From positions 22,616 through 86,615 of the forward strand of contig DASWOB010000095.1 in the NCBI GenBank assembly GCA_036398925.1: 64,000 nt of DNA, in the 5' to 3' direction. This document shows positions 16,326 through 56,771 of the stretch, one piece after another. The DNA comes from Thermoanaerobaculia bacterium (lineage in GTDB: Bacteria; Acidobacteriota; Thermoanaerobaculia; Gp7-AA8). The notes beneath the pieces were generated by a model. The model saw nothing but the letters and a program-made list of their open reading frames with translations. It was not told the origin of the DNA and made no database searches. How positions within the stretch are numbered: position 1 is the stretch's first letter; each line of letters opens with the position of its first letter. The position numbers and the translations under genes are program-made.

Positions 16326-16329
16326 GAGC

Positions 16330-16388: not shown

Positions 16389-16389
16389 G

Positions 16390-17058
16390 CTAGAAGAACC
16401 GCGTGCGGATCACGGTCCGCGCGATCTTCAGCGTGTCGAGCAGCGGCCGGTAGTGGCTGGTCGAGATGCCGTCGACGAATCCGAGCTCGATCGGGATGGT
16501 GACGATCGCAAAACCGCGCCGGCCGGCGCGGACGATCACTTCGCTTTCCATGTCGAAGCCGTCTCGGCGCAACGGGACCTCGCGCATGATCCGGGAGGAG
16601 TAGAAGCGGAAGCCGCTCTGCGAGTCGGTGATCTTCACGCCCGACGCTTTGGCGATGCACCAGGCGGAAAAACGGTTCGCGCGACGGCGGCGGGGAAGCA
16701 TGTGCTCGAAGAGGTGCGCGCGTCCGCCGATGATCAGGTCGGCGTTCGTTTCGGTCGCGGCGCGGAGGAATTTCGGGATCTCGCTCGGCAGGTGCTGTCC
16801 GTCGGCGTCGAGAGTGATCACCCCTTCGTAGCCGTTCGCGAGCGCCCACGCGAAACCAGTCTTGAGCGCGCCCCCTTTGCCGCGGTTGACCTCGTGGCGC
16901 AACACGATGGCGCCGTGCTCGCGCGCCACGTCGCTGGTGCGATCGGAAGAACCGTCGTCGATGACCAGCACCGGCTCGAGATGCTGACGCGCCGCGTCGA
17001 TCACCGGACCGAGCGTCTTCGCCGCGTTCAGCGCCGGAATGATCGTCACGAGCTTCAT
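16390..17058 (-). CDS. family 2 glycosyltransferase (GT2, GT-A fold)
   Basis: IIPALNAAKTL, VIDDGSSDRT and LDADGQH (DxD) motifs. 222 aa. Last gene of the ACP-DH-KS-CLF-GT2 operon (4-nt overlap with upstream gene). Confidence 0.8.
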   Translation of the reverse strand: MKLVTIIPALNAAKTLGPVIDAARQHLEPVLVIDDGSSDRTSDVAREHGAIVLRHEVNRGKGGALKTGFAWALANGYEGVITLDADGQHLPSEIPKFLRAATETNADLIIGGRAHLFEHMLPRRRRANRFSAWCIAKASGVKITDSQSGFRFYSSRIMREVPLRRDGFDMESEVIVRAGRRGFAIVTIPIELGFVDGISTSHYRPLLDTLKIARTVIRTRFF

Positions 17059-27281: not shown

Positions 27282-27629
27282 TCACGGGACCCGCTCGAGA
27301 TAGTGACTCAAAAACGACTCGAGCTTCGGCAACTCGTTCGCGACGACGTTCCACACTCTTTCGAGATCGATTCGTCCGTAATCGTGCACCAGCACGTGCC
27401 GCATCCCAGTCATGGCCGACCAGTCGAACTGAGGCAGTTCCGCCCGTGCCGCTTCCGACAAACGCCCCGCCGCTTCACCGATCACCATCAGGCAGCGAAT
27501 CACAGCGTCCTGCTTCGAAAGATCACCGATGAACGCGTCGTACGACACCCCACCGGCGTGCGACCGCGCGCGAACGGCGAAGTGCAGCACATCCGCGAGG
27601 AGTCCCAGGTCACGCTCAGGCAACGTCAA
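27282..27629 (-). CDS. hepT: HepT-like (DUF86) toxin, nucleotidyltransferase-substrate-binding fold
   Basis: Rx4HxY motif present as MRHVLVHDYGRID. 115 aa. It overlaps the upstream MNT gene by 14 nt. Confidence 0.8.
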   Translation of the reverse strand: MTLPERDLGLLADVLHFAVRARSHAGGVSYDAFIGDLSKQDAVIRCLMVIGEAAGRLSEAARAELPQFDWSAMTGMRHVLVHDYGRIDLERVWNVVANELPKLESFLSHYLERVP

Positions 27630-27939
27630 GCAGCACCACCGAGTTCAGGATCGACCGCTTCCGAAAGCGATTCGGACTCTCTTCCACGGCTACCCGCTCC
27701 ACGAGATCAACGGGGCGTCCGAAAATTTCCGCGAGCTCGTCTTGGGCGTGTACGAAATCAAACAACGACCACTTGGCATCTCGCGCGAACGTCACCAGCA
27801 CATCCACATCACTGTCCGCCCGGAACTCCTCAGGGCGCACCACGCTCCCGAAAAGCGCAAACTCCGTGATCTTCCACCGGCGGCAGAAGTCACGGAGCTT
27901 GTCTTTGTCGATCTCGATCGCGATGTTCGCCATCGCCAT
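27616..27939 (-). CDS. mnt: MNT-type nucleotidyltransferase antitoxin
   Basis: GSx10DxD motif FGSVVRPEEFRADSDVDVLV. 107 aa. Paired with HepT. Confidence 0.8.
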   Translation of the reverse strand: MAMANIAIEIDKDKLRDFCRRWKITEFALFGSVVRPEEFRADSDVDVLVTFARDAKWSLFDFVHAQDELAEIFGRPVDLVERVAVEESPNRFRKRSILNSVVLLDVA

Positions 27940-31618: not shown

Positions 31619-31667
31619 GGCGTATGCCGGGTTTTCACAACGTAGAGGCCGTGTTGGTATTCCGAGT

Positions 31668-31748
31668 GATGAGCGATGAGCGATGAGCGATGAACGTCAC
31701 GGATTCGCCACGCTCATCGCTCATCTCTCATCACTCATCGCTTAGCAT
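31668..31748. repeat. family-A heptamer hairpin repeat ((C/A)GATGA(G/A) units, inverted arms) in divergent intergenic region
   Basis: gtgatgagcgatgagcgatgagcgatgaacgt-cacggattcgccacg-ctcatcgctcatctctcatcactcatcgct. Related copies at 37553-37640, 40141-40232, 45229-45312, 56347-56392/56741-56778 (split), and 58096-58206. Confidence 0.75.
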
Positions 31749-31754: not shown

Positions 31755-33359
31755 GTGTCCGTCGACGACCTTCGTCAGCAACTGCGCGATCGCGGCTATC
31801 TGAGCCACGGGATCGAGCGGTGGTTCGCGCTCGATCCGTGGAGCTCGCGGGCGTTCTGGTGGGAGCTGGCCATCGTGGCGCTGAAGGCGGCCACGCTGAT
31901 CGCCGTCTTCGGGGCGTTGCCGTTCGCGGCGGTGATGGTGTTCCGCAATTACCCGCTGCATGCGCTGGAGACGCTCGGCCTGTTCGTGACCTACGGCGCG
32001 GCGTGGCTGGCGGCGTCGTTCGCGTTCGTGATGCTGGTGGCGCTGGTGCTGAAGGTGCGGCCGTCGCTGCCGATCGATACGCCGCGGGCGCTCCTGGCGA
32101 TCTCCCTCGGGGCCAGCGCGCTGTTCGTCGCGCCGCTGGCGCTCTGGTGGTCGCGCTTCGATGCCTCGCCGTCGACCGCGGAGCTGGTCACCGGGGCGGC
32201 CCTCGCGGCGGCGTTCTTTCTCGTGACCACGGTCGTCGTCTCGGCGGCGCTGCTGTCGTTCTCCATTTACGAGCTGCAGCGCATCCCCGCCATTCACCAG
32301 AAACCGCGCGGCGTGCCGATGGCGATCGCCGCGGCGGTGCTGATCGCGCTGCTCTTCGTGCCGGCGTATGCCCAGCGGGAGCGCCCTGTGGCCGAGCCGA
32401 TGATCGTCACGACACCGACCACCCGCAACGTCGCCCTGATCGCGGTGGACGGGCTGACGGTGGAGCTGCTCCGGTCGCGTCCCGACCTCGGCCGCGAGCT
32501 GCGCTACGTCACGCCGGCCACCGCCCTTCCCGGCGCGTCGACGACCGAGCGCTGGGCGTCGATCGGTACCGGCGTGCGCACCGATGCCCACGGGGTGCGG
32601 GCCATCGAGGGGGTCCGCTTTCGCGGCGGGCGGCACATCATCCAGCGCATCTCCCCCGGCGACTTTGTGCTGATGAACCTCGCCCCCGCGATCGGGATCG
32701 CCCGGCGCGAGCCGCTTCCGCCGACCGTGCGCCGGCGCGATTACGTCTGGGAGATCTTCGCCAAGCGCGGCCTGCCGGTGGTCTCGACCAACTGGTGGAC
32801 GACGGCCGAGTCGAAGGATGGCGCGCTGATCTCGATTTCGCCGGAGACGGTCTTCACCGCCGCGCAAGGGCAGCCGTTGCGCCTCGACCAGGAGGCCACC
32901 GCGCGGTTCCTGGCGGCGGTCGACGCCTCGAAGCCGCGCTTCGCCACGGTCTACCTGCCCGCCCTCGACGTGATCCTCAACCGCCTCGAGCGCGATCGCA
33001 ACACGCAGGTCGTGCAGTCGGTGCAGGCGCTCGACGGCGTGCAGCAGGCGCTCGTGCAGATGCGGACGCGCGGTTACGAGGTGGTGCTGATCGGCCTGCC
33101 GGGCGAGGAGCAGTCGGGCCAGGCCGTGATTGCCTCCAGCATCCCCATCAAGAACGTCGCCGCGGCGTGGGACGTGGCCCCCACCCTCCTCGCACTGATG
33201 GGCTTTCCGCTGTCGTCGGAGATGCCGGGCAACGACCTCGCATCGGCCTCCGCCGAGCCTCGCATCGCCACCTACGGCAGCCGCGTCAGCGCGACCGCCC
33301 CGGCAGCGGTGAACGAGGACTACTACGAGAACCTGAAATCGCTGGGGTACATCCAATGA
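31755..33359 (+). CDS. membrane-anchored alkaline-phosphatase-superfamily (type I phosphodiesterase/sulfatase-like) protein
   Basis: N-terminal multi-TM region, then ...VALIAVDGLT... and ...VVLIGLPGE..., typical of the AP-superfamily metal-binding core. This assignment is tentative. Confidence 0.45.
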   Translation: MSVDDLRQQLRDRGYLSHGIERWFALDPWSSRAFWWELAIVALKAATLIAVFGALPFAAVMVFRNYPLHALETLGLFVTYGAAWLAASFAFVMLVALVLKVRPSLPIDTPRALLAISLGASALFVAPLALWWSRFDASPSTAELVTGAALAAAFFLVTTVVVSAALLSFSIYELQRIPAIHQKPRGVPMAIAAAVLIALLFVPAYAQRERPVAEPMIVTTPTTRNVALIAVDGLTVELLRSRPDLGRELRYVTPATALPGASTTERWASIGTGVRTDAHGVRAIEGVRFRGGRHIIQRISPGDFVLMNLAPAIGIARREPLPPTVRRRDYVWEIFAKRGLPVVSTNWWTTAESKDGALISISPETVFTAAQGQPLRLDQEATARFLAAVDASKPRFATVYLPALDVILNRLERDRNTQVVQSVQALDGVQQALVQMRTRGYEVVLIGLPGEEQSGQAVIASSIPIKNVAAAWDVAPTLLALMGFPLSSEMPGNDLASASAEPRIATYGSRVSATAPAAVNEDYYENLKSLGYIQ

Positions 33360-35353
33360 AGAAACTGCTTCTGCTGATTTTTCTTGCTACGACGATCGAC
33401 GCCCAGCGCGTCATGACCTTCGAAGACCTGGCCGCGATGCGCCGCATCGGCTCGCCCAGGGTCTCGCCGGACGGCAAGTGGCTGGCCTACGACGCCTCGA
33501 CCGTCGACCTGGCCAAGAACGTCCGCCGCAGCGCGATCTACCTGCGGCCGGCCGGCGGCGGTGCGGCGAAGCAGCTCACCGATGGCGCGCGCCAGGACGA
33601 CAGTCCGGTCTGGTCGCCCGACGGGAAGACGATCGCCTACCTCTCGAACCGGGACGGCAATCCGAAGCAGGTCTACCTCTATGACGTCGCCACCGCGAAA
33701 TCGACGAAGCTGACCAACCTCTCGGGCGGCGCCGGCTCACTGAAGTGGCTGCCGGACGGCTCCGGCCTGATCCTCGTCTCGCAGGTCTACGCCGACTGCG
33801 GCGTCGAGCCGCAGTGCACCGAGAAGAAGGCCGCCGCCGGGGAGAACGCTCCGACGCAAGCCCGCATCATCGACAACCTCCTCTATCGCCACTGGAACGA
33901 GTGGCAGGCGCCGACCCGCGCGCACATCATCCACGTCCCGCTCCGCGGCAACCCGCGCGACCTGACCCCGGGCGCCTTCGACGCGCCCCCCTTCTCCGTC
34001 GGCGGCGGCGACGAGTTCGACGTCTCCCCCGACAGCAGGGAGCTGGTCTACGCCCGCAACGTCGAGGAGCGTCCGGAGCGCTCGACGAACGCCGATCTCT
34101 ACCTCGTGCCGCTGACCGGCGGCGAGGCGAAGCGGATCACCTCCCGCACCGGCGCCGATACCTCCCCCAGCTACTCCCCCGACGGCAAGTGGATCGCCTA
34201 TCGCTCGCAGGCACGCAACACCTTCGAGTCCGATCTCTGGGAGCTGTGGCTCCTCGACCGCGCCACCGGGCAGTCGCGCCGCGTGGCCAGCGACTTCGCC
34301 AACTGGGTGCAGTCGATCACCTGGGCCCGCGACAGCAGGTCGCTCTACGTGACGGCGCCGCTGGCCGGCAAGGTGCCGATCTACGAGATCGCCCTCGACG
34401 GCAAGACCACCGTCATCCACAACGCCGGCGCCGCCCACAACATCGACGCGGGCCGGAACGCGATCTACTTTGCGATGTCCACCCTCCGCCGGCCCGACGA
34501 CATTTACTCGCTCGACACGAGCGGCAAGGTGGTGAAGCTGACCACCGAGAATGACGCGCTCCTCGCCCAGCTCTCCCTCGGCGAAACGTCCGACCTCTGG
34601 TGGACCGGCGCCGACGGCGCACGCGTGCAGGGGCACCTCATCAAGCCGCCCAACTTCGACCCGTCCAAAAAGTACCCGGCCCTCGTGCTGATCCACGGCG
34701 GCCCGCAGGGGGCATGGAGCGAGTCGTGGTCGTACCGCTGGAACCCGCAGCCGTTCGCGGCGCGCGGCTACGTGATCCTCATGCCGAACCCGCGCGGCTC
34801 CACCGGCTTCGGCCAGCAGTTCGTCGAGCAGATCTCGCAGGACTGGGGCGGCCGCGTTTACACCGACATCATGAACGGCGTCGACACCCTCGCCGCAATG
34901 CCGTTCGTCGACGGCAACCGTCTCGGCGCCGCCGGCGGCTCCTACGGCGGCTACATGGTCAACTGGATCCTCGGCCACTCCACCCGCTTCAAAGCGCTGG
35001 TCTCGCACGCCGGCGTGTACAACCTCGAATCGATGTACGGCGTGACCGAGGAGCTCTGGTTCCCGGAATGGGAGTTCGGCGGCACGCCGTGGGACAACCC
35101 GGAGCAGTACGAAAAGTGGTCGCCGCACCGTTTCGCGAAAAACTTCGCCACCCCCACCCTGGTCACGCACGGTGAGCTCGATTTCCGGGTGCCGATCGGC
35201 GAGGGGCTGCAGCTCTTCACCGCCCTGCAGCGCCGCGGCGTCCCCTCACGGCTGCTCTACTTTCCGGACGAGGGGCACTGGGTGCTCAAGCCGCAGAACT
35301 CGAAGCTCTGGTACCAGACCGTCGGGGAGTGGTTCGACCGGTACCTGAAGTAG
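33356..35353 (+). CDS. S9-family serine peptidase (prolyl oligopeptidase / dipeptidyl aminopeptidase type) with N-terminal beta-propeller
   Basis: Signal peptide MKKLLLLIFLATTIDAQ. Propeller repeats (SPDGKWLAY, SPDGKTIAY). Catalytic Ser in GGSYGGYM, then Asp and His downstream (THGELDFRVP, DEGHWV). Confidence 0.88.
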   Translation: MKKLLLLIFLATTIDAQRVMTFEDLAAMRRIGSPRVSPDGKWLAYDASTVDLAKNVRRSAIYLRPAGGGAAKQLTDGARQDDSPVWSPDGKTIAYLSNRDGNPKQVYLYDVATAKSTKLTNLSGGAGSLKWLPDGSGLILVSQVYADCGVEPQCTEKKAAAGENAPTQARIIDNLLYRHWNEWQAPTRAHIIHVPLRGNPRDLTPGAFDAPPFSVGGGDEFDVSPDSRELVYARNVEERPERSTNADLYLVPLTGGEAKRITSRTGADTSPSYSPDGKWIAYRSQARNTFESDLWELWLLDRATGQSRRVASDFANWVQSITWARDSRSLYVTAPLAGKVPIYEIALDGKTTVIHNAGAAHNIDAGRNAIYFAMSTLRRPDDIYSLDTSGKVVKLTTENDALLAQLSLGETSDLWWTGADGARVQGHLIKPPNFDPSKKYPALVLIHGGPQGAWSESWSYRWNPQPFAARGYVILMPNPRGSTGFGQQFVEQISQDWGGRVYTDIMNGVDTLAAMPFVDGNRLGAAGGSYGGYMVNWILGHSTRFKALVSHAGVYNLESMYGVTEELWFPEWEFGGTPWDNPEQYEKWSPHRFAKNFATPTLVTHGELDFRVPIGEGLQLFTALQRRGVPSRLLYFPDEGHWVLKPQNSKLWYQTVGEWFDRYLK

Positions 35354-35386
35354 GGCTGAGGGCCAGGGGAGAGACGGGCCCGGCGG

Positions 35387-35722
35387 GGCGGGAACCGGGC
35401 GTGTCACGGCGAGAACCAAGCGTGTCCTGGCGAGAATCAGGTGTGTCTCGCCGAGAATCAGGTGTGTCGTGGCGAGAATCAGGCGTGTCTCGCCGAGAAT
35501 CAGGTGTGTCGTGGCGAGAATCAGGCGTGTCTCGCCGAGAATCAGGTGTGTCGTGGCGAGAATCAAGTGTGTCTCGCCGAGAATCAACTGTGTCTCGCCG
35601 AGAATCAACTGTGTCCCGGCGAGAATCAGGTGTGTCCCGGCGAGAATCGAGTGTGTCTCGCCGAGAATCAACTGTGTCCCGGCGAGAATCACCCGTGTCG
35701 CGCCGGGAATCGACCGCGTCCT
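35387..35722. repeat. tandem direct repeat array, 21-bp period x ~16 copies (GGCGAGAATCAGGYGTGTCTC / GCCGAGAATCAGGTGTGTCGT alternating)
   Basis: Directly visible periodicity. Copies degrade toward both edges. Each unit junction forms the quasi-palindrome TCTCGCCGAGA. It lies in the convergent gap between the S9 peptidase and gvpA. Confidence 0.85.
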
Positions 35723-35742
35723 GACCGAACCAGGGCGAAGAA

Positions 35743-36033
35743 CTACGGGCGGGTGGTGCCGGTCGGCGTAGCCACGCCGGTGCCGGTGCCGATGCCGCCG
35801 CCACCTTCGCCGGGTCCGAGGGAGGGACGGGCGACGGTCGAGGTGATACCGACCGCTTCGGCGTACTTCAGGTATGTATCGATCGAGGCGATGACGACGC
35901 GGGCTTCGACCGTGATCAGGTCGATGCCGACGAGCGAGATGCGGACCCAGGCGTCGACGACGATGCCTTTGTCGAGAATTCGATCGAGGACATCGATGAG
36001 ACTCGTACCGCCCGGTGCGCGTTCGACAGCCAT
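35743..36033 (-). CDS. gvpA: gas vesicle structural protein GvpA (with Gly/Thr-rich C-terminal tail)
   Basis: [52 protein letters not shown] is near-identical to the canonical GvpA core. Confidence 0.9.
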
Positions 36034-36040
36034 GAATTAC

Positions 36041-36379
36041 CTACCTTTCCTCTCTCTCAGGGAGGGTCTTGCCTGCGTTGAGTTGCCGCTCGAGCTCGGC
36101 CACGCGATCGCGGAGGGCGTCCACGTCGTCGGCGCCGCCGCGGAGGGCGCGCGGATCGCTCGAATAGAAGCGGTCCGAGCGCCACCAGTTGATGCCGATC
36201 GCCTCTGCTTTGTCGATCGAGCAGATGACCAGGCGCAGCTGGATGGTCAGCAGCTCGACGTTGGCCAGCGACACCTTCACGTCGCCGGCAACGACGAGCC
36301 CCTTGTCGAGAATCTTGTCGAGGATGTCCACCAGACCCTGCGGCTGGCGCTGGAGCGCTCCCCGATCGTCAATTGCCAT
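36041..36379 (-). CDS. gvpJ: gas vesicle protein GvpJ (GvpA/J family)
   Basis: LVDILDKILDKGLVVAGDVKVSLANVELLTIQLRLVICSIDKAEAIG. 112 aa with a C-terminal extension. Confidence 0.85.
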   Translation of the reverse strand: MAIDDRGALQRQPQGLVDILDKILDKGLVVAGDVKVSLANVELLTIQLRLVICSIDKAEAIGINWWRSDRFYSSDPRALRGGADDVDALRDRVAELERQLNAGKTLPEREER

Positions 36380-36420
36380 GGTCAGACGTGTACCGGATGT
36401 GCGGCGTGCGAGTCAATGGT

Positions 36421-36753
36421 TTACTCCCACATCTTTACCGGCCCCAGCTTCAGGTTGAGGTCCTCGTCGGAGAGGCCGAAGGTCCGTTTCAGCTCCGCCA
36501 TCTTCTCCTCGAGCTTCATCAGGGCGTTGCCCAGCCTCTCGATCTCCTCGTCCGTCAGGTTGCCGGCGTCCATGCGCCGCAGGGCCTGTTTCTCGAGGAG
36601 ACGGCGCACCAGCTCGATGATGGAAAGCACCAGTTTCGCGAGCCCGTTCTCGACGATCTCCGAATCTGCGGAGATGCGCTCCGGCACCACCGACTCGGTG
36701 AAGGTCAGCGCCTCGCGCAGCTCTTTTTCTTCATTCGCGATCAGCATCGGCAA
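36421..36753 (-). CDS. gvpK: gas vesicle protein GvpK
   Basis: LAKLVLSIIELVRRLLEKQALRR is the GvpK signature helix. 110 aa. Confidence 0.75.
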   Translation of the reverse strand: MPMLIANEEKELREALTFTESVVPERISADSEIVENGLAKLVLSIIELVRRLLEKQALRRMDAGNLTDEEIERLGNALMKLEEKMAELKRTFGLSDEDLNLKLGPVKMWE

Positions 36754-37369
36754 AGACCTCCAGCGGCCACGGTCCGGAGAGGAGAAAGGCGACGCCGGTG
36801 GCCTTGAGCGCCTCCCCCGCTTCGCGGACCTGATCGATCGACGCGCGGTCGACCAGCATCGCCAGCTCGATCGACTTTTCGTCGCGATGGCTCCAGCGAT
36901 GCTGCACGGCCAGCGGCACCATCCGCTGCTCGACCTGCTCCCCGAACTGCGGATCGACGCTCGCCCCGTGCGTCGCCGCGTGCAGCGCTTTCAGGTACTC
37001 CGCGCCGCTGGTGAACTCGCGGCGATCCGGCCGCGCACGCGGTGACGCCGCCGCGACCTTGAGCGTCATCTCCACGCGGTCGCCATGCGCCTCCAGCGTC
37101 GCCTTCCACTGCGCCACATGCGCGGCGGTCCTGGCCCGCGCGTCGTCGTCGCTGGAGATGGTGAAGCCGTAGCGGATGGCCAGGAACGTCGCTTTCTCGA
37201 GCAGCCGCGCGCGCGTCTGCGCCACGTGCAGGAGCAGCTCGCGATCGCCGAGCGCCTGCTGCTCCGCGACCGGGACCGCGCTGAGAAAGAGATCGGCGGA
37301 GGGGATGGCCCGCGCCAGCGGCTCGACGTCCTCGCGGCGCAGGTGCGCGCCGATGACGATCGACTTCAT
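36731..37369 (-). CDS. gvpL: gas vesicle protein GvpL/GvpF family
   Basis: 212 aa with a GvpL_GvpF-like profile (...LLHVAQTRARLLE..., FLLSGPWPL near the C-terminus). It overlaps the gvpK start. Confidence 0.65.
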   Translation of the reverse strand: MKSIVIGAHLRREDVEPLARAIPSADLFLSAVPVAEQQALGDRELLLHVAQTRARLLEKATFLAIRYGFTISSDDDARARTAAHVAQWKATLEAHGDRVEMTLKVAAASPRARPDRREFTSGAEYLKALHAATHGASVDPQFGEQVEQRMVPLAVQHRWSHRDEKSIELAMLVDRASIDQVREAGEALKATGVAFLLSGPWPLEVFADADRE

Positions 37370-37548
37370 TTCGGCCGGCTCGTGCGGATCACCGCATCGA
37401 CGTTGGCCAGAATGACGTTGAGGCCGAGGTAGAGCAGATCGACGTCGCCGATGGAGATCACGGCTTCGCCGGCAATCACCACCCCGCGGTCGAGCAGGTG
37501 GTCGAGCGTCTCGAGCAGGGCGAGTTCTTCGATCTGGTCGTCAGGCAT
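37366..37548 (-). CDS. gvpS: small GvpA/J/S-family gas vesicle protein (GvpS-like)
   Basis: Start at MPDDQIEELALLETLDHLLDRGVVIAGEAVISIGDVDLLYL (ATG 37548). The upstream part of the track ORF ([15 protein letters not shown]) is translation of the family-A repeat. Confidence 0.7.
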   Translation of the reverse strand: MPDDQIEELALLETLDHLLDRGVVIAGEAVISIGDVDLLYLGLNVILANVDAVIRTSRPK

Positions 37549-37552
37549 AGTG

Positions 37553-37640
37553 GATTCGGAAGCGATGAGTGATGAGAGATGAGCGATGAACACGCTCCGC
37601 GTCAGTCCCGTTCATCGTTCATCTCTCATCGTTCATCGCT
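37553..37640. repeat. family-A heptamer hairpin repeat inside the gvp operon (between gvpF and gvpS)
   Basis: gcgatgagtgatgagagatgagcgatgaac-acgctccgcgtcagtcccg-ttcatcgttcatctctcatcgttcatcgctcg. Confidence 0.7.
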
Positions 37641-38405
37641 CGTTCCTGCAAAGCTGTACGGCGGCCACGGCCCCGTCACCCCCACCACCACCCCCTCCGG
37701 CTCGTAGCGGGCCAGCAGTTCATCCTGCAATGCCTGCAACGCCGGTTCCTCGTCGCGGTTGATGAGGACGTTGATCTGCGGGAAGGCGCCGCCGCGGCGT
37801 TCGCGGGTCTCGGCGATCGACTCGCACTTCAGGCGGCCGAGGAGCTCGCGTTCGACTTCGGCCAGCAGGTCGTGCTCGGCCTGGCGCGCGGCGCTTTTCT
37901 TCTGCTCTTCGAGTTTCTTGCGCAGCAGGAACGCTTTGCCGGCGGCAGCCGATTCGATCTCCGTTTGCAATGCACGCAGCGAGGCCACGCGGGTGACGAT
38001 CGAGGCGTTGAAGCGCTCCGGGTCGATCTCCAGGCGCAGCGTCCACTCCTGCTTACCGTCCAAACGGTCGAGCGTCTTCGCCAGCAGCTCGCGGTTCTCG
38101 TGCAGGTAGGCGCGCAGCGCTTCGGCGCTGCTGAAGAGGGTGAAGGCGCGCAGCGGGACGATGGCGGTCTGCTTCATCAGCTCCGCAACGACGGCCTGGT
38201 GGCGGTAGCCGATCGCGCCGAGCCATTCCAGGTCGTTGGCGCGCTGGTCGATGACCGCCTGCGAGAACGCCTCTTCGGCGACGGGAGTGAACACGGCGGC
38301 GATGTCGTCGATCGAGACACTATCGAAGCGCCGCGAGCCATCGACCGCCTCGACGTCGGCTGTCGCGGGCTGGCGCGTCACGGCGTAGACGTAAAGCACG
38401 CTCAC
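37626..38405 (-). CDS. gvpF: gas vesicle protein GvpF/GvpL family
   Basis: MSVLYVYAVTR... N-terminus and VTGPWPPYSFAG C-terminal motif typical of GvpF. 259 aa. Confidence 0.75.
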   Translation of the reverse strand: MSVLYVYAVTRQPATADVEAVDGSRRFDSVSIDDIAAVFTPVAEEAFSQAVIDQRANDLEWLGAIGYRHQAVVAELMKQTAIVPLRAFTLFSSAEALRAYLHENRELLAKTLDRLDGKQEWTLRLEIDPERFNASIVTRVASLRALQTEIESAAAGKAFLLRKKLEEQKKSAARQAEHDLLAEVERELLGRLKCESIAETRERRGGAFPQINVLINRDEEPALQALQDELLARYEPEGVVVGVTGPWPPYSFAGTSDER

Positions 38406-38411
38406 GTTGCG

Positions 38412-40196
38412 TCAGTGTATCGGAACGAGCGTCGCCAGTTCGGCGAGCCTGGTGACCGGCTCGTCGCGGCGCTCGATCAGCATCAGGTTCTCGCCGAGTG
38501 GTGCGAGCGCCGCGAGCTCACCGGCGCGCGTCCCACGATCGCAGGCGCATTCGTTTTCGGGAGTGACGTAGTTGGCCACGATGCCCCCCACCCGCAGGCC
38601 GCGCTCTTCGATGGCGGCGATGAGTCGTCGCGTTTCGGCGACGACGATCGGCTCCGGGCGGGTGACCACGATGACGGTGGTGCGCTCCGACTTCATCGTG
38701 GCGTCGAGCTCCTTGAAGGCGCGCGAGGCGTTGACCAGCTCCTCGCCGAGCGAGCCGGGGGCGACGAGATCGCGATAGTTGAGGAGGATGCGCATCAGCT
38801 CGCGCACCCACTCGCCGGCGCTCTTCGGGAGGTCGAGCAGGCGGAGGAAATGACCGGTTGGCGCGGTGTCGACGAGCACCTGCGTCTCTTCGCCGATCAG
38901 GTCTGCGAGGCGGGTGATGGCGAAGATCTCGTCCGCACCCGGCGGGGCGACGTCGAGCAAGCGCCGCATGGCCTCTGTGTCGTGGCTCAGCGAGAAACCG
39001 CCCGGGGCGAGCCCTTCCACGGCCCGCTCGATCTCGCCGCCGAGGGACTGGCGGAAACGGCGCCACTTCGCGCGGGTGTCGATGGTCTCTACGGTGAGGT
39101 TGGGGGGCGGCGATTCGTGGGCGAAGACGTCGCGGAGGGAGTGGGCGGGGTCGACGGAAATGAGGGTGTATTTCTGCCGCGGGTTTGCTTGCGCGAGCTG
39201 CAGGGCGATGGAGGACGAGGTGGTGGTCTTGCCGACGCCGCCTTTGCCGGCGAAGAAGGTGAGCTTCGTGTGGTGTGGGATCCCAGCCCACCCCTGGGGG
39301 ACGGATACGGTGGAAGCCGACACCACACCAGCTTCTTCGCAGAACCTTGCGAGGTCCGCGACCGGCACGCCCACCTTCTCCCGCGCCTCCGCGTCTCGCT
39401 GCGCACGACGCTCGTCCAGCGGGCAATCCACCTTCAGCACCGCGCGATTCAGCACCGCGAACGGGACGTCGATCCCCTCCTCCCGCACCTCCGCGATCAG
39501 GCGGACGGTCTGCTCGACCACCCATGGCTCGCTGAGGAGCACCGGGATGAAGGCCGCCCGGGCCGGGTCGTTGAGCAGTTCCCGGCGCGCCTTCGCCTGG
39601 TCCGCAAAGTCGTAGATGTAGGTGTCGAGCGCATCGCGCACGTCGCGGCGGGTGAACTGCCGGACCATGGCCCGATGCTTCTCCTGCATGGCGTCGAGCG
39701 CCTCCGCGAACTGCGCGAAGTGCTCGGCGGAGGAGAGCATCCGCAGCGTGTGACCGGTCGGCGCGGTATCGACGACGATCAGCGCATCGGGATTGGCCTC
39801 GGCCAGCTCGCCGATGCGCATCCACGACATCAGCTCGTCGATCCCCGGCAGCGAGAGCTCGAAGAAGCGGCGCAGCTCCTCGCGATCGAGGTACGTCCCG
39901 CGATCGCCGATCTCCAGCAGGTTCGCCAGGTTCTCCGAGAGAAAGCGCGAGTAGAGCGTCTCCGCGTCGACCGATTCGACCGTCAGGGATGCCGGCAGAG
40001 CCAGGTCGCCGAGGTTCGAAGCGGGGTCGGTGGTGAAGAGGATGACCCGGCGCGTCTCGGCAAAATGCAGCGCCGCACGCGAAGAGAGGGTGGTTTTGCC
40101 GACGCCGCCTTTGCCGCCGAAAAGAACAACTCTTCGGGTGGACAGCGATGAGAGATGAGAGATGAGCGATGAGCGTCCGCCCGGTTCATCGCTCAT
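38412..40196 (-). CDS. ArsA/GET3-family anion-transporting ATPase, tandem two-domain (two deviant Walker A + two DTAPTGH motifs), embedded in gvp operon
   Basis: VLFGGKGGVGKTT...DTAPTGHTLRML (half 1) and TFFAGKGGVGKTT...DTAPTGHFLRLL (half 2). C-terminal CxC (ENECACD). The only in-frame ATG lies within the family-A repeat at 40196, so the start is uncertain. Confidence 0.8.
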   Translation of the reverse strand: MSDEPGGRSSLISHLSSLSTRRVVLFGGKGGVGKTTLSSRAALHFAETRRVILFTTDPASNLGDLALPASLTVESVDAETLYSRFLSENLANLLEIGDRGTYLDREELRRFFELSLPGIDELMSWMRIGELAEANPDALIVVDTAPTGHTLRMLSSAEHFAQFAEALDAMQEKHRAMVRQFTRRDVRDALDTYIYDFADQAKARRELLNDPARAAFIPVLLSEPWVVEQTVRLIAEVREEGIDVPFAVLNRAVLKVDCPLDERRAQRDAEAREKVGVPVADLARFCEEAGVVSASTVSVPQGWAGIPHHTKLTFFAGKGGVGKTTTSSSIALQLAQANPRQKYTLISVDPAHSLRDVFAHESPPPNLTVETIDTRAKWRRFRQSLGGEIERAVEGLAPGGFSLSHDTEAMRRLLDVAPPGADEIFAITRLADLIGEETQVLVDTAPTGHFLRLLDLPKSAGEWVRELMRILLNYRDLVAPGSLGEELVNASRAFKELDATMKSERTTVIVVTRPEPIVVAETRRLIAAIEERGLRVGGIVANYVTPENECACDRGTRAGELAALAPLGENLMLIERRDEPVTRLAELATLVPIH

Positions 40197-40232
40197 CTCT
40201 CATCTCTCATCTCTCATCTCTCGACGATCATC
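40141..40232. repeat. family-A heptamer hairpin repeat between gvpG and the ArsA-like gene
   Basis: cgatgagagatgagagatgagcgatgagcg-tccgcccgg-ttcatcgctcatctctcatctctcatctctcatctctcg. Confidence 0.7.
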
Positions 40233-40551
40233 GCTCGCCGTAGCCGGTATAAATGCCGATGCCACCTTCGTCTTCGCCACGCTCGGCGGCCATCTGCCGG
40301 GCGATCGCCTCGCGCCGCGCGCGGATGTCGCGCAGCGCCTGAAAGATGACCTGCTCCTCGGCCACGTAATCTTCCTCGCTGATGTCGCCCACCTCGAGCC
40401 GCATCTGCAGCTCGATCAGCCGCTCTTTCCACGGCTGGTCGTTCATCAACTCCTCGTCCGCCAGCTTCTGGATCGTGTGCATGACCCAGCGGAAGCCGGC
40501 GATCGGCCCGGTGATCGGGAGGAGGAGGATGTCGTCGAGGAGAAAGGCCAT
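40228..40551 (-). CDS. gvpG: gas vesicle protein GvpG
   Basis: MAFLLDDILLLPITGPIAGFRWVMHTI... followed by an acidic coiled region, a GvpG-like profile. 107 aa. Confidence 0.7.
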   Translation of the reverse strand: MAFLLDDILLLPITGPIAGFRWVMHTIQKLADEELMNDQPWKERLIELQMRLEVGDISEEDYVAEEQVIFQALRDIRARREAIARQMAAERGEDEGGIGIYTGYGER

Positions 40552-40555
40552 GTTT

Positions 40556-40652
40556 TTGAGCGATTCAGCCGTTCAGCTACTCAGCTACTCAGCTACTCAG
40601 GCAGTGTACGCCGCGCTCGCGGCCTGAACAGCTGAACGGCTGAGTAGCTGTG
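40556..40652. repeat. family-B heptamer hairpin repeat inside gvp operon (between gvpF/L and gvpG)
   Basis: gagcgattcagccgttcagctactcagctactcagctactcagg-cagtgtacgccgcgctcgcgg-cctgaacagctgaacggctgagtagctgtgcagc. Confidence 0.7.
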
Positions 40653-40655
40653 CAG

Positions 40656-41444
40656 CTATCTTTCCGCCCGCTCCAGCTTCAGCCGGATATTCACAAAGTT
40701 GTACGGCGGCCACGGCCCCGTGTAGAGGAACGAGAGCTTGTTCTCGTACTTTTTGGCGATCTCGGAGATCTGATCGTCGAAGGCCTTGGTCTTGTCGCGC
40801 TCCACGAGGAACGCGGCGTTCATGATCATCTTGTCGCCGATCGGTTTGTTCGAGCGGGAGGCGATGGCGGCGTCGCGCAGCGCTTCGTAGATCTCGGTGA
40901 CATACGCATCGGCCTTGGCCTGCAGCGCCGATTCGACGACGCGGCCGAGCTGCATCCGCGAAAAGTAGGTGGAAGTCGATGTGTTCGAGGAGATCTCTTC
41001 CTTCAGCCGGCGGATCTCTTCGTTCTCCTGCTCGATCTCCCGCACCACCTGGTCTTTGTCCCAGTTCACCTTCAGGCCGAACTCGATCTTCCCCTCCATC
41101 TTCTGGAGGACGTCGCTCAGCGCTTCGTACGTTCCTTTGAGGAACTCCTTGATGTCGTTCTCGGTGCGGAAGACGGTGCCGAAGGACATCGGCAGCACGG
41201 TGAAATCCTTCATCACGAGCTCGTTCACATGCTCGTGGGCCAGGGCGTTCTCACGGGTCGGGTCGAAGACGATCAGCGGGCAGTTGGAGACGACGGCGGA
41301 AAACTCTCTGTAATGCACGGTGTAGACGCGGTCGCCGCGGCCGCCGATGCCGACCCCGCCGAAATCCTTCGGCAGGTCGGTCTTGATGATGCAGTACACG
41401 TATTTGCCCTGTTCAGCGTCGTTCGACGGAACCTGATCACTCAT
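40656..41444 (-). CDS. gvpF: gas vesicle protein GvpF/GvpL family (first gene of gvp operon)
   Basis: Start at MSDQVPSNDAEQGKYVYCIIKTD (ATG 41444). YTGPWPPYNF C-terminal motif. 262 aa. Confidence 0.75.
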   Translation of the reverse strand: MSDQVPSNDAEQGKYVYCIIKTDLPKDFGGVGIGGRGDRVYTVHYREFSAVVSNCPLIVFDPTRENALAHEHVNELVMKDFTVLPMSFGTVFRTENDIKEFLKGTYEALSDVLQKMEGKIEFGLKVNWDKDQVVREIEQENEEIRRLKEEISSNTSTSTYFSRMQLGRVVESALQAKADAYVTEIYEALRDAAIASRSNKPIGDKMIMNAAFLVERDKTKAFDDQISEIAKKYENKLSFLYTGPWPPYNFVNIRLKLERAER

Positions 41445-42532: not shown

Positions 42533-45226
42533 ATGCGCGGGCGTGTTGCGGTCCTCCTCTTTCTCTCGGTTCTCGCTTTCCCCATCTATCCCCAGTGCTC
42601 GTGGGCTCCTCGCACCTCGATGCCCTTCCGCGCGTCGGTGCTCGACGTGGCGGTCGACGGCGCCGATCTCTGGGTGGCCACCTCGTACGGCGTGCAGCTG
42701 CTCGACCGCACGATCGATCCACCGGCACTGGTGGCCTCGCTGGCCATCCCCGGCACGACGCGCGTGGCGCGGCCGCACAACGGGCTGGTCTACGTCGGGA
42801 GCGGCTCGAAGATCGTCATCGTGAGGAAGAACGGCCGCACGCTGCAGCTCGTCCGCAGCGTCGAGGCGGGCGGCAACGTGAACGACTTGCACTTTGCCGG
42901 CTCGTACCTTTTTGTCGCGACGTCGAACGGGCTCGCGCACTTTGATCTGCTGGAGCCGGCGAATCCGGTCCGCACCAACGTCTCCACGCTCCCGACCTCG
43001 AACGACAACGTGACCTCGCTGGCCGCGGCCGGCAACACGCTCTACGCCGCCGATGGCGACAGCAGCGTGCACGCGTTCACCCTCGTCTCGCCGGCGCTGC
43101 CGCAGCACGTCAACGCCATCGAGTCGCTGCCGGGCGCGAGCTCCGTCAACGCCACCAACGGCCGGCTCTACATCTCCGACGGCCAGAGCACGGAGGTCTT
43201 CAGCGGGACGGTCAAAGAGACCACCCAGCCGTACGGTGCGTCGGCATTCGGCACGCTGGCCGGCGAGATCCATTTCGTGGCCGGACGCGATCGCACCCTG
43301 CGCGCGATCGACTTTTCGCTCGCCACGCGGCCGGCCGGCCTGTTCGAGGACGTGCTGCCGATCAGCGGCGGCAACGTGAACCGCATCTCCGCGATCGCGC
43401 TCGCATCGAATCGCGCCTACGTGGCCGCGGGTGACATCGGCCTGATCACGTACGACCTCACGAACTTCACCGCCCCTTATCCGCTGCACATCCAGCCGAA
43501 CGGCGGCACGACCTCGACCCTGCTGATGAACCGCGTCTACGGCACGAACGCGATGCCGGCCGGCGGCATCACGGAGTACGAGCTGGCGGGCGACGGCTCG
43601 CTCAATCCGCGGCGGACTTGGGCGTCCGAGGCGCGGCACACGCTGCTCGACGGCAACGGACTCCTGCTGACGGCGAACGGCACCTCCCTCTTCCTGTGGG
43701 ACGTCGCCCCGTCGACGCCGCAGAACCTCGCCACCGCGGAGCTCGACCTGCCGGTGCGCGCCGCGGCGCTGATGCACACCGCGCTCGCCTTCGCGCTGCT
43801 CGAAGACGACTCGCTCTGGCGCGTGAACCTCGTGCCGGGCGGCGCGTCGACGAAGACGAAGCTCACCGGCACGGCCATGCGTCTGGTGCGCAACGGGACG
43901 GCGCTCGCGACGGTGTCGGTCGATCCGGAGAGCGGCAACACCACGCTCCGCTACTACGCGACGGGTGACCTGGCGGTCGCGCCGACGCGCGTCGTGGAGA
44001 TCCCCGGCGCCGCGAACGGCACGCTGGCCCTCGGCGCCAGCCGCGCCGCCATCACCACCTTCCGCGGCATCAACGTGGTCGATCTCGCCACCGGCAACGT
44101 CTCGGTGCTGAAGGACTCGCTGATCACCATCAGCCCGTCGCTGCGCATCGAAGGCAATCGGCTGCTGGCCCTGACCAGCGACCAGCTGGCGGTGTGGGAC
44201 CTGGCCACCGGCGCGCGGCTGCGCAGCTTCGCCGGCGCCGGCGGAACGCAACTGCACGTCTCCGGCACGACCGCGACCATCGCCAGTGCCAGCGGCATCA
44301 CCACCGTCGCGTACGAATCGCGCAGCGGCCTGCCGGCCCGCCTCGAGGCGGCCAACCCGAGCCGCTTCCACACCCGCGTCGTGGCCGGCGCCGGCCGCGC
44401 GTATCTCTTCGGACGCGACGGCGTCGACATCTACGACACGCAACGCGGCGCCACGCCGCACTTCATCACCCGCATCCGCCCGGCCGGTCTGCTCGACGCG
44501 ACCGCGGCCGCGGGGGCGCTCTTCACCCTCGCCTCCAACGGCGTCGTGGCGAAGTGGTCGCGCGACGGCGCGCCGCTCGCGCAGATCACCATCAACGAAG
44601 GCACCGACGCGCAGATGCTGAACATCGGCTCCGCCGGCAACGCGGTCTGGGTGGCGATCTCGAAAGGCTGCTTCTCCGGCGCGTGCGAGAAGAAGACGCT
44701 GATCTTCGATCCTGCTTCGCTCGCCAACACGTCGTCGCTGAGCGGCGGCATGATCGACGTCGTCACCTCCGGCGCGCGCGCCTACGCCCTCTTCCGCCTG
44801 CCGAACGAGATGCGCGTCTACAACATCTCGGACCCGCTGCGCCCCTCGCAGGTCGTCGCCGCCGCTTCACCGGCCGGCGCGGTGTCGCTGGCCTTCGCCA
44901 ATGGCGCGCTGCACGTCCTCGCCGACAAGGTCTACGCCTTCAACGAAACGACCCTCACCGCCAGCGGCGAGCAGCTCGCAGCCGCCACGCCGAACGACGC
45001 CCAGCGCCTCCGCATCGACGGCAACTGCGCCGTCGTCAGCGGACGCGGCGCATCGCCGGAGCTCTTCACGCTTCCGGCGTGGAGCAGCGCGCCATCGAGC
45101 GAAACGCCCTCCGTCGTCCGCTCGATCGCTGTTGAAGGAGGGAAGCTGTTCGTGCTGACCGATCACTCGCTGGAGATGTGGTCGGAGCTCACCGGAAGTA
45201 CGCCGAAGAAGCGCGCCACGCGATAG
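42533..45226 (+). CDS. large secreted repeat protein, predicted beta-propeller (LVIVD-like repeats)
   Basis: Signal peptide MRGRVAVLLFLSVLAFPIYP. Recurrent ~40-aa units of the form LYVA/LFVA...G+...D (LWVATSYGVQLLD, LYVGSGSKIVIV, LFVATSNGLAHFD, LYAADGDSSVHAF). No catalytic motifs recognised. Confidence 0.5.
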   Translation: MRGRVAVLLFLSVLAFPIYPQCSWAPRTSMPFRASVLDVAVDGADLWVATSYGVQLLDRTIDPPALVASLAIPGTTRVARPHNGLVYVGSGSKIVIVRKNGRTLQLVRSVEAGGNVNDLHFAGSYLFVATSNGLAHFDLLEPANPVRTNVSTLPTSNDNVTSLAAAGNTLYAADGDSSVHAFTLVSPALPQHVNAIESLPGASSVNATNGRLYISDGQSTEVFSGTVKETTQPYGASAFGTLAGEIHFVAGRDRTLRAIDFSLATRPAGLFEDVLPISGGNVNRISAIALASNRAYVAAGDIGLITYDLTNFTAPYPLHIQPNGGTTSTLLMNRVYGTNAMPAGGITEYELAGDGSLNPRRTWASEARHTLLDGNGLLLTANGTSLFLWDVAPSTPQNLATAELDLPVRAAALMHTALAFALLEDDSLWRVNLVPGGASTKTKLTGTAMRLVRNGTALATVSVDPESGNTTLRYYATGDLAVAPTRVVEIPGAANGTLALGASRAAITTFRGINVVDLATGNVSVLKDSLITISPSLRIEGNRLLALTSDQLAVWDLATGARLRSFAGAGGTQLHVSGTTATIASASGITTVAYESRSGLPARLEAANPSRFHTRVVAGAGRAYLFGRDGVDIYDTQRGATPHFITRIRPAGLLDATAAAGALFTLASNGVVAKWSRDGAPLAQITINEGTDAQMLNIGSAGNAVWVAISKGCFSGACEKKTLIFDPASLANTSSLSGGMIDVVTSGARAYALFRLPNEMRVYNISDPLRPSQVVAAASPAGAVSLAFANGALHVLADKVYAFNETTLTASGEQLAAATPNDAQRLRIDGNCAVVSGRGASPELFTLPAWSSAPSSETPSVVRSIAVEGGKLFVLTDHSLEMWSELTGSTPKKRATR

Positions 45227-45228
45227 AG

Positions 45229-45312
45229 CGAGCGATGAGCGATGAGAGATGAGCGATGAACTGTAGCTGCCGCTCGCACGTTCATCGTTCATCTCTCATC
45301 GTTCATCGTTCG
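45229..45312. repeat. family-A heptamer hairpin repeat between co-directional genes
   Basis: gagcgatgagcgatgagagatgagcgatgaac-tgtagctgccgctcgcac-gttcatcgttcatctctcatcgttcatcgttcgg. Confidence 0.7.
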
Positions 45313-45358
45313 GCGGAAGCCAGTCCCCATCCCCGCCGCGCGTAGAATCCGCGCCACC

Positions 45359-46114
45359 ATGAAAATCACCCTCTGGTCCGACGCGAACGCGTACCACATC
45401 ACCCTCAACGATCCGCCGCTGCACATCCTCGACGTCGAGATGCTGGGGGAGCTGCGCGAGGCGCTGGCGCGCATCCCGAACGACCGCCACGCGCTGATCA
45501 TCGAGGCCTCAGGCGAGAAGGCTTTCTCCGCCGGCGCGAGCGTGCAGGATCACCTCGGCGAGCGCGTCACCACGATGCTCGGGCTCTTTCACGACTGCTT
45601 CCGGATGCTGGCCAGGCTCGATCTCGTCACGGTCGCTCTGGTGCGCGGCGCGGCCCTCGGCGGCGGCTGCGAGCTGGCCATGGCGTGCGACTTCGTCCTC
45701 GCTTCCGACCGCGCGCAGTTCGGCCAGCCGGAGATTCACCTCGGCGTCTTCCCTCCCGTGGCCGCCTATCAGCTCTCGCGGCAGACCATGCCGCGCAAAG
45801 GACTGGAGCTGCTGCTCACCGGCGATCCGATCGATGCCGCGACCGCGGAGCGGATCGGCCTCGCCAGCGCTCTCTTCCCCGCCGGGGAGTTCGATACGCG
45901 GTCCGATGAGTGGCTGCAGCGCCTCTATCGCCAGAGCGCGTCGTCGATCCGCTTCGCGAAGAAAGCGTTCCGCATCGCGCAAAGCGCCGATTTCGACGAA
46001 CGGCTGGCAGCGGTCGAGCGGCTGTACCTCGACGAGCTGATGCAGACCAGCGACGCCAACGAAGGGCTGAACGCCTTCGTGGAGAAGCGCAAGCCGGTCT
46101 GGCGGGGAGAGTAG
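45359..46114 (+). CDS. enoyl-CoA hydratase/isomerase (crotonase) family protein
   Basis: Oxyanion-hole motifs FSAGASVQDH and GAALGGGCELAMACD. 251 aa. Confidence 0.8.
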   Translation: MKITLWSDANAYHITLNDPPLHILDVEMLGELREALARIPNDRHALIIEASGEKAFSAGASVQDHLGERVTTMLGLFHDCFRMLARLDLVTVALVRGAALGGGCELAMACDFVLASDRAQFGQPEIHLGVFPPVAAYQLSRQTMPRKGLELLLTGDPIDAATAERIGLASALFPAGEFDTRSDEWLQRLYRQSASSIRFAKKAFRIAQSADFDERLAAVERLYLDELMQTSDANEGLNAFVEKRKPVWRGE

Positions 46115-46203
46115 AGCTGCTCAGCTGCTCAGCTCCTCAGCTGCTCAGCTATTCAGCTGTTCAGGCGGCCTGAATAGCTGAACAGCTGTGAAGCTGAGCG
46201 GCT
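46113..46203. repeat. family-B heptamer hairpin repeat between convergent genes
   Basis: cagctgctcagctgctcagctcctcagctgctcagctattcagctgttcagg-cggc-ctgaatagctgaacagctgtgaagctgagcggctgg. Confidence 0.7.
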
Positions 46204-46205
46204 GG

Positions 46206-46616
46206 CTAGTCCTTCTGCTCTTCGAACTCGACGGTCGTGTTGGCGTCGAGCTTCACCAGCGTCTTGCCGCTCGGCACGGTCACCAGCGGGAAGGTGGCGA
46301 CGATGACGACGCCGGAGGTCTTGCCGTCGCAGCCGACCGGCATGGGGCGGACGACCTTCAGCTCGCCGAACTGACGGGCCACGACTTTCCCCCTCGCGTC
46401 GACGATCTCCAGCGGCGGGGCCGACTTTGCCTGAATGGCCTTCGCCAGCGCCTGCGCTTCCTGAAACGTCAACTTGCCGGTCAGGAGGGTCAGGATCTGG
46501 TGGGGACGGCCGCGCTCGGTGCGGGCGACGAAGCGGTTCACGCACGCGGCGGAAGCAGCGTCGGCGACGAGCACCGCGAAGGAGAGGACGAGAGCGAGAC
46601 GCGTGGCTTTGATCAT
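46206..46616 (-). CDS. hypothetical secreted protein (~136 aa)
   Basis: Start at MIKATRLALVLSFAVLVADAASAA (signal peptide). No family recognised. Confidence 0.45.
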   Translation of the reverse strand: MIKATRLALVLSFAVLVADAASAACVNRFVARTERGRPHQILTLLTGKLTFQEAQALAKAIQAKSAPPLEIVDARGKVVARQFGELKVVRPMPVGCDGKTSGVVIVATFPLVTVPSGKTLVKLDANTTVEFEEQKD

Positions 46617-51521: not shown

Positions 51522-51614
51522 CAGGACCCTGTCAGAACGGTCGTAGTGGTGACGATTATGCCCGTGAAACAGTTACGGTCGCAGATTGCGCGCTCACGCA
51601 CGCGGATTGCGCAC

Positions 51615-56358: not shown

Positions 56359-56393
56359 CGAGCGATGAACGATGAACGATGAACGATGAACAG

Positions 56394-56747: not shown

Positions 56748-56771
56748 CGCTCATCTCTCATCGTTCATCGC

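Follow-up and report, generated by a model that had tools for sequence, protein, structure and literature searches.

A 21-bp tandem repeat between convergent S9 peptidase and gvpA genes of an uncultured Thermoanaerobaculia bacterium: a probable terminator-like hairpin array or neutral minisatellite

Mycobacterial MIRUs form a dispersed family with units of 40–100 bp and documented polymorphism between strains, and plasmid iterons and sopC of F are tandem arrays of 19–43 bp units containing inverted repeats. REP units, 20–40 bp long and tagged with GTAG or CGTC, occur in alternating orientation, number tens to thousands of dispersed copies and are often linked to RAYT transposases (PMC3733652). 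Roughly 60% of the REPs in E. coli are flanked by convergent genes, their presence there correlating with higher expression of both, and E. coli REP325, with 12 hairpins in six two-hairpin segments, is a terminator and mRNA stabiliser that yields a transcript ladder (bioRxiv 10.64898/2026.03.23.713779). The heptamers of cyanobacteria and Beggiatoaceae (STRR, TAACTGA) are 7-nt direct repeats found mostly just upstream of start codons (PMC4679880). Here we describe a tandem array of 16 units of 21 bp (35387..35722, no strand) in a 64,000-nt stretch of contig DASWOB010000095.1 (hereafter the window), whose closest genomes are those of uncultured Thermoanaerobaculia (Acidobacteriota). Of the 389 nt that separate an S9 family peptidase gene from the convergent gas-vesicle gene gvpA, most are taken up by the array. 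The likeliest readings of it are a terminator-like hairpin array and a neutral expansion, rather than a device dedicated to the regulation of gvpA.

Anatomy of the array and its likeness to described repeats

An earlier note on this DNA, made from its letters, had proposed about 16 tandem copies of a 21-bp unit at this site, and Tandem Repeats Finder (TRF), the column profile, uniqueness searches and the alignment of the units bear this out, with 16 units in register. The consensus unit is GGCGAGAATCAGGTGTGTCTC, an 18-bp interrupted palindrome (GAGAnnCAnnTGnnTCTC) followed by a symmetric GSC linker that joins one palindrome to the next, a point absent from the earlier note. At period 21, TRF places the array at 35387–35711 (15.5 copies, 82% matches, score 321), and period 42 fits it better (7.7 copies, 86% matches, score 405); by the same program it is the sole outstanding tandem array in the window. 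The array centre holds three perfect copies of a 42-bp doublet, GCCGAGAATCAGGTGTGTCGT plus GGCGAGAATCAGGCGTGTCTC, which are the two alternating units that had been quoted and which are correct for this central block; the homogeneous core with its three A/B doublets (35443..35565) is exactly 42-periodic over 123 nt. Eleven of the 21 unit columns are invariant across all 16 units, and variation among internal units is restricted to columns 2, 11–14 and 20–21, with no internal 7-nt periodicity in the unit. Towards its ends the array is degenerate, the end units being 4–9 positions off consensus (5 mismatches in each of the two peptidase-proximal units, 35387..35428; 4 and 9 in the two gvpA-proximal ones, 35681..35722), so that the description of the repeat as near-perfect was too generous. 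The same holds for the claim that every unit boundary forms a quasi-palindrome and that about 16 identical dyad sites result: TCTCGSCGAGA is exact at 6 of the 15 boundaries and has one mismatch at 4 more, as it arises only at the junction of a unit ending in TCTC with a unit starting in GCC. There are two dyad axes per period, and the array is self-complementary in many registers.

Throughout the 64-kb window, the 21-mer (up to 3 mismatches) and the unit core (up to 2 mismatches) were matched inside the array only, where chance alone would yield 0.00 and 0.25 matches; the array is thus genuine and well outside what chance could produce. The interrupted palindrome GAGAnnCAnnTGnnTCTC behaved likewise, with nine matches, all within the array (0.18 expected in the window). 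The 21-mer had no match in 164 other loci, blastn of the array against plasmids found none, and two-unit DNA patterns gave 0 matches in viral contigs and 0 in genome and metagenome contig collections; as the last two evidently do not include this species, their zeros carry little information on the remainder of its genome. A scatter of the repeat over many loci, which the earlier note had said would speak against its proposals, was thus seen neither in the window, nor in the 164 loci, nor in the collections searched. For looking up the array in the wider genome, the query sequence is CGAGAATCANNNGTGTC.

In structure the array is a minisatellite, a class made of head-to-tail units of 10–100 bp (here 16 of 21 bp, TRF score 321–405), and in its presumed working it is closest to REP/BIME elements. 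As in BIME-2 and REP arrays, short palindromic units stand in tandem outside genes and are grouped in pairs at a higher order; akin to REPs, which are located at gene 3′ ends in mostly convergent or tandem settings, the array lies between two stop codons (35353 and 35743), and its unit is an imperfect palindrome able to form a stem-loop, giving serial hairpins in a transcript. Yet it stands outside that family, being single-locus, made of direct units and devoid of a tag: units A and B agree at 17 of 21 positions in direct and at 12 of 21 in inverted orientation, the consensus unit has no terminal GTAG or CGTC, and the array is found at a single locus in all data searched, not dispersed. A REP with a CGTC tag was considered and rejected, since its stem, loop and tail dimensions (PMC3733652) do not fit the array. 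Regularly spaced short repeats with some dyad symmetry also recall CRISPR, but the units here are contiguous, without spacers between them, as had been pointed out before. Like MIRUs, the array lies in intergenic DNA and is built head to tail from units of some tens of bp, uniform in its middle and decayed at its ends, and its unit number may change by slippage; but it sits at one locus and its sole copy-number difference (14 versus 16 units) may be an assembly effect.

That difference emerged from a comparison of assemblies. JGI metagenome contig 3300034146 Ga0334964_000024 (158 kb) matches the window at 100% identity; there are 16 units in the window and in contig L002, and 14 in ENA assembly ERZ27253109 (L001). 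Deletion of any 42 bp within 35443–35565 reproduces L001 exactly, and in a direct comparison of 19.9 kb this one 42-bp doublet in the core is the sole difference between L001 and the window, the flanks of 10,291 and 9,611 nt having 0 mismatches. An apparent pair of strains (40 single-nucleotide polymorphisms, 99.8% identity by BLAST) was ruled out, because the ungapped alignment runs out of register through the array while the flanks have no mismatch at all. As the flanks are 100% identical, both assemblies may share a population or even reads; by the copy-number criterion of a minisatellite or variable-number tandem repeat, the 14 units of L001 against the 16 of the window and L002 thus amount to one comparison, possibly of the same reads. 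The 123-nt periodic tract is shorter than the k of 141, so that either unit count was resolvable in principle. A third contig (L003) ends inside the array, and the 90% protein clusters of the S9 peptidase and of GvpL are singletons, which means that no other strain of the species is represented in the protein database. As a single-locus, slippage-prone repeat, the array could be used as a marker to type populations of this uncultured species, and its site is a warning that assemblies break or collapse there.

The array is non-coding. Five of its six frames are open throughout, because the unit contains no stop codons in them, but every repeat open reading frame (ORF) runs into the 3′ end of a flanking gene (S9, gvpA or both), and GC3 (G+C at third codon positions) is 0.46–0.72 in the repeat frames compared to 0.72–0.94, mostly at least 0.85, in the ORFs of our gene map, which is crude and itself GC3-based. 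The gene callers of two assemblies made no call within the gap, and none of four repeat ORFs matched a Pfam family above cut-off, the best being a low-complexity match to RNase_Y_N (30.8 bits, cut-off 32); the earlier dismissal of these ORFs as implausible was well founded. Sorted by codon position, the variable columns are not concentrated at one position (4/7, hypergeometric p ~0.13). Searches of the gap with Rfam gave no match at gathering thresholds; under an E-value threshold, two models of plant miRNA precursors were the sole matches, scoring 26.5 and 20.1 bits where their cut-offs are 77 and 100. A promoter scan found no sigma-70-like promoter in or beside the gap.

The peptidase–gvpA gap in relatives

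Eight relatives carry the convergent peptidase/gvpA arrangement (L005, L006, L008, L009, L086, L088, L089 and the contig pair L164/L166), and the 21-mer is present in none of them. In the first seven, the S9 peptidase is 64–76% and GvpA, over its first 72 residues, 94–99% identical to the proteins of the window; L164/L166, to which this GvpA range does not extend, represents the closest relative on two contigs (S9 92%, GvpL 87% identical). Compared to the 389 nt seen here, the gaps of the seven fully assembled relatives measure 6, 47, 66, 77, 90, 93 and 190 nt. Each of the four gaps of 66–93 nt is essentially one strong hairpin of species-specific, unrelated sequence (folding z −3.7 to −10.8), the 190-nt gap contains several hairpins (z −4.5), and the 47-nt gap folds weakly (z −1.5). 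The hairpin arms themselves may be repetitive, as in L086, where (GGACTGA)x3 faces (TCAGTCC)x3, and in L089, where the arms have a period of 8–9 nt.

Other repeats occupy this site in the nearest relatives. L164 and L166 both end inside the gap: on the gvpA side (L166 6623–6678) GGGCCGAG repeats face CTCGGCCC, and on the peptidase side (L164 5303–5347) at least three copies of a 14-bp unit, GTAGGGCCGGGGGC, are found, a unit unrelated to the 21-mer (alignment score 12, shuffle mean 11.9). In the next relative, L004 (S9 79% identical), the contig breaks 94 bp past the stop codon, inside repeats that consist of GTTGGCR heptamers and GGAGTTCCTC decamers, that is, 7- and 10-bp units (L004 3848–3938). 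Local alignment of the 21-mer to the relatives’ gaps in search of a seed gave scores at or marginally above those of shuffles (best 23, shuffle maximum 22). On the peptidase side of our array, the G+C-rich spacer that follows the S9 stop codon (GGCTGAGGGCCAGGGG..., 35354..35386) loosely resembles, by eye, the GGGCCGAG-type repeats at the same place in the relative with 92% S9 identity; at the other end of the array, 20 nt (35723..35742) separate the gvpA stop codon from the last unit.

On these comparisons, the gap between the S9 gene and gvpA is a site of rapid turnover that usually holds self-complementary and often tandemly repeated sequence, and it is a hotspot for repeat birth and assembly failure. 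The array is the version peculiar to this species and arose after the split from the relative with 92% S9 identity. Given the absence of the 21-mer from the relatives, including that one, the array is young and stands outside conserved gvp biology. For gas-vesicle research this is a mostly negative result: the array does not belong to a conserved apparatus of gvpA control, and those who engineer gvp clusters should not include it as a regulatory element.

Two further repeats near S9 genes were noted on the way. In a distant member of the Acidobacteriota (L047 3782–3991), about 10 units of 21 bp (ACGCGTCTSTCCAGAGACGSC), each built around the palindrome GTCTC..GAGAC, form two oppositely oriented blocks just upstream of an S9 peptidase homologue; this array is like ours in kind (21-bp period, TCTC/GAGA dyad) and different in sequence, which may be coincidence or a recurring type. 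In two Thermoanaerobaculia loci (L006 8040–8120 and L010 8060–8235), a common palindrome, GGACAGGCAATCCTGCCTGTCC / CACAGGCAATCCTGCCTGTG, occurs twice per locus downstream of the S9 gene and looks like a REP-like dispersed element of that lineage.

Proposed explanations: hairpin array, neutral expansion and lesser alternatives

How might such an array have arisen, and does it act? We consider it close to an even call that it is a young, lineage-specific, non-coding minisatellite acting as a bidirectional, terminator-like hairpin array in the manner of REP/BIME. A palindromic 21-bp seed would have been amplified head to tail by replication slippage or unequal recombination in an insertion-tolerant 3′-to-3′ gap; transcripts entering from either side would then fold into hairpins or long imperfect duplex rods, since each unit is nearly its own reverse complement. 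The resulting barrier, which lacks a U-tract, could end or attenuate read-through in both directions and shield both mRNA 3′ ends from exonucleases. As the array lies in the slot where relatives bear a single strong hairpin, it would most likely do the same job.

The homogeneous 42-periodic core between decayed ends is the usual signature of turnover by slippage or unequal exchange. In this respect the earlier suggestion of a slippage hotspot with phase-variable length is plausible, given the exactly 42-periodic 123-nt tract and the one-doublet assembly difference (possibly a collapse), but a classical phase switch is not what a change in length could provide, because the array lies downstream of both stop codons and not, as in a contingency locus, in a promoter or a reading frame. 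Folding of the whole gap is strong on either strand, at −191.5 kcal/mol for the + strand (z −6.5) and −167.5 kcal/mol for the − strand (z −7.1), with long imperfect rods in both cases owing to the dyad symmetry of each unit, and a hairpin with a 7-bp stem and a 10-nt loop (GGCGAGA ... TCTCGCC) is possible in each unit. The idea of a structured 3′ untranslated region for the gvpA mRNA is plausible as a generic hairpin barrier for both convergent transcripts, though not as a gvpA-specific device, because relatives with 94–99% identical GvpA lack the array. A terminator role is further supported by three observations: canonical hairpin-plus-T-run terminators are near chance over 40 kb (13 versus 9.2 expected; 16 versus 10.8), hairpin elements (of the H8 family described below) are also present in the window’s two remaining convergent gaps of 60 bp or more, and REP325 provides a precedent. 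A CsrA sponge, with GGA in hairpin loops, was ruled out by eye, as the loop reads AGG, AAG or AAC and these positions vary among units.

Several points weigh against this reading. The array fails as an intrinsic (Rho-independent) terminator, in which a G+C-rich hairpin is followed by a U-tract: no hairpin-plus-T-run terminator is found in 35000–36400. The 6-nt gap of L009 is free of any hairpin, so that a hairpin is dispensable at this position, and in other relatives a single hairpin of 47–93 nt suffices; 16 units exceed that need, which favours neutral expansion. No covariation was seen for the per-unit hairpin among the 12 distinct units. The two stem positions that vary, 2/23 and 5/20, fail to pair in 5 and 6 of these units, respectively, and although 87% of stem cells are paired across the 12, shuffles reach 85% and 134 of 500 attain the observed value. 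The pairing stems from invariant columns; folding potential is thus built into these columns, and selection on structure has no support from covariation. The count of 14 versus 16 units may likewise be an assembler artefact (collapse), with which it agrees as well as with slippage heterogeneity, and a role as terminator or stabiliser is argued here from sequence and predicted folding.

Neutral or selfish expansion is a possible explanation and nearly as likely as the hairpin array: a functionless minisatellite would be tolerated between the convergent stop codons, because that gap has no promoter or reading frame to damage, and folding would simply follow from the palindromic nature of the seed. 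None of the relatives has the array, not even the one with 92% S9 identity; the gap turns over completely between species, with unrelated units at the same site (14 bp in L164, 7 and 10 bp in L004, heptamer arms in L086); in one relative (L009) it measures 6 nt; covariation is absent; and 16 units are far above what a terminator needs. Against a purely neutral reading, the slot usually contains a strong hairpin whose sequence differs by species, suggesting that hairpin-forming sequence is retained or favoured there, and hairpin elements also occupy other convergent gaps of the window. The origin of the array would be the same in both cases, and what separates neutral expansion from the terminator-like array is whether an effect at the transcript level matters.

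It is improbable that the array binds protein, as the earlier note had suggested. Units spaced at 21 bp (two helical turns) would in that case present dyad sites on one DNA face to a dimeric regulator, a nucleoid protein or a binder of the centromere or iteron type. The strict 21-bp phasing, the dyad motifs TCTCGSCGAGA and GAGAnnCAnnTGnnTCTC and a ParA/ArsA-fold ATPase gene 2.7 kb away would suit such a binder, and iterons and F sopC offer a parallel, in that they too are directly repeated, with a phase of about two helical turns or with units of 43 bp, and contain inverted repeats. However, the dyad sites are far from identical, as the boundary counts show, and no other part of the window has the motif, the promoter side of the gvp genes being no exception: one-mismatch matches outside the array number 4, against ~5 expected by chance. 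The ATPase is of the tandem Get3/ArsA type and is kept in relatives that lack the array, and no gene for a binding protein co-occurs with the repeat. As opposed to iterons and partition centromeres, which lie on plasmids or at origins next to rep or par genes, the array has an S9 peptidase gene and gvp genes as neighbours and stands in a chromosomal context (the contig carries SecA, tRNAs and proC, and shows no rep or parB gene), without a match in plasmids or viral contigs. Nor is it conserved in close relatives, and selected, sequence-specific sites would not be replaced wholesale in the one with 92% S9 identity.

That the assembler made the array, or its length, is very improbable. Two assemblies do differ by 42 bp and L003 does stop inside the array, but the same 14 non-core units with their individual variants recur in an ENA contig (k141_...) and a JGI contig (Ga0334964_...), the first three units are also present in a Logan contig, and the tract, at 123 nt, is shorter than k; the uncertainty is confined to the number of core doublets (2 or 3). 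Least probable of all is a coding heptad repeat (21 bp being 7 codons), such as a GvpC-like protein, which the open frames and a place after gvpA that recalls gvpC might suggest, given the ORF overlaps, GC3, scattered variable columns and lack of gene calls or Pfam families reported above, and gaps in the relatives too small for such a gene.

Other repeat elements and the gene setting

Strong tandem-repeat hairpins of two families, H7 and H8, recur in the window, with nine complete elements in 64 kb (−34 to −66 kcal/mol), sited between gvp genes and in the gaps of convergent and divergent gene pairs. H7 hairpins have the form (GATGARN)x3-6, loop, (NYTCATC)x3-6, with arms of (GATGAGC/GATGAGA/GATGAAC)n facing (GTTCATC/GCTCATC/TCTCATC)n, and are located at 31655–31748, 37556–37645, 40138–40232, 45224–45316 and 58100–58208 (−50 to −66 kcal/mol); two of them are inside the gvp operon. 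The relatives L164, L088 and L089 have H7 as well, and its two sites, one preceding a phosphodiesterase-like gene and one preceding a small gvp gene, are apparently the same there. In H8 hairpins the arms are tandem octamers, (TCAGCNNN)n, loop, (NNNGCTGA)n (16322–16395, 40556–40660, 46110–46208 and 60005–60088; −34 to −65 kcal/mol); two of the four take up gaps between convergent genes, and one separates gvpF from gvpG. It is mainly to H7 and H8 that the STRR and TAACTGA heptamers are relevant, as short tandem repeats filling the intergenic regions of a lineage, whereas the array has a 21-bp unit and lies downstream of both of its genes.

One H7 element is split by a gene. At 56364–56769, a PF05635 gene (‘23S rRNA intervening-sequence protein’, a four-helix bundle of 117 aa; ORF 56394–56747, − strand) lies exactly between the left and right H7 arms. 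All five PF05635 copies inspected, the others being L169 1501–1848, L170 206–553, L171 1501–1851 and L172 812–1165, are bracketed by H7 arms, with the ATG start codon inside the last heptamer. The cassette occurs at different operon junctions (phosphopentomutase-like/PYNP here, queC/radical-SAM in L169–L171), and PF05635 homologues number ~1,945, many on very short contigs. The PF05635/H7 unit looks like a relocatable, intervening-sequence (IVS)-like cassette of which the gene-less H7 hairpins are the short form, and an IVS-like architecture in mRNA operons deserves a study of its own.

This lineage, then, fills intergenic gaps, including those of its gvp operon, with strong tandem-repeat hairpins, a broader context that may matter more than the array itself. 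Should the hairpins serve as modules of RNA processing or termination, the expression of operons would be shaped by them in a phylum that apparently has few canonical terminators. H7, H8, the decamer and heptamer arms in relatives and the H7 form that encloses a 23S-rRNA-IVS-type gene leave some room, in our view not much, for a reading in which hairpins with arms of short, species-specific tandem repeats arise again and again in the intergenic gaps of these Thermoanaerobaculia, and the array is a recent arrival in a class of such self-complementary elements that spans the lineage. The elements would then be modules for double-stranded RNA processing or termination, and the gap would be a place where new families originate by a common mechanism and not by chance slippage.

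The genes on either side of the array are those named in the earlier note. The S9 family peptidase gene (33356..35353, + strand, 665 aa) is a called gene with homologues and a Pfam match to PF00326 (E 1.8e-68), and gvpA (35743..36033, − strand, 96 aa) matches PF00741 and, in NCBIfam, NF006874 GvpA (117.8 bits, cut-off 100). gvpA is the last gene of a − strand gvp cluster that runs to ~41444 and comprises, in order of transcription, gvpF/L, gvpG, the tandem Get3/ArsA-type ATPase gene (38412–40196, − strand, 594 aa; TIGR00345, 259 bits; kept in all syntenic relatives), gvpF/L, a 60-aa Gas_vesicle gene, gvpL/F, gvpK, a gvpJ-like gene and gvpA; neither the GvpN nor the GvpO family is represented among the called genes of the cluster (35743–41444).

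A second 21-bp tandem repeat, CGCGGATTGCGCACTCACGCA (51580–51628, 2.3 copies, 92% matches), lies at the 5′ end of a − strand ORF (51615–52547) and is unrelated to the main array in sequence. Beside secA, at 27282–27939 on the − strand (18053–18710 in L001), a nucleotidyltransferase (NTP_transf_2/Polbeta) gene and a HepT-like gene form a pair with the layout of an MNT-HepT toxin–antitoxin system.

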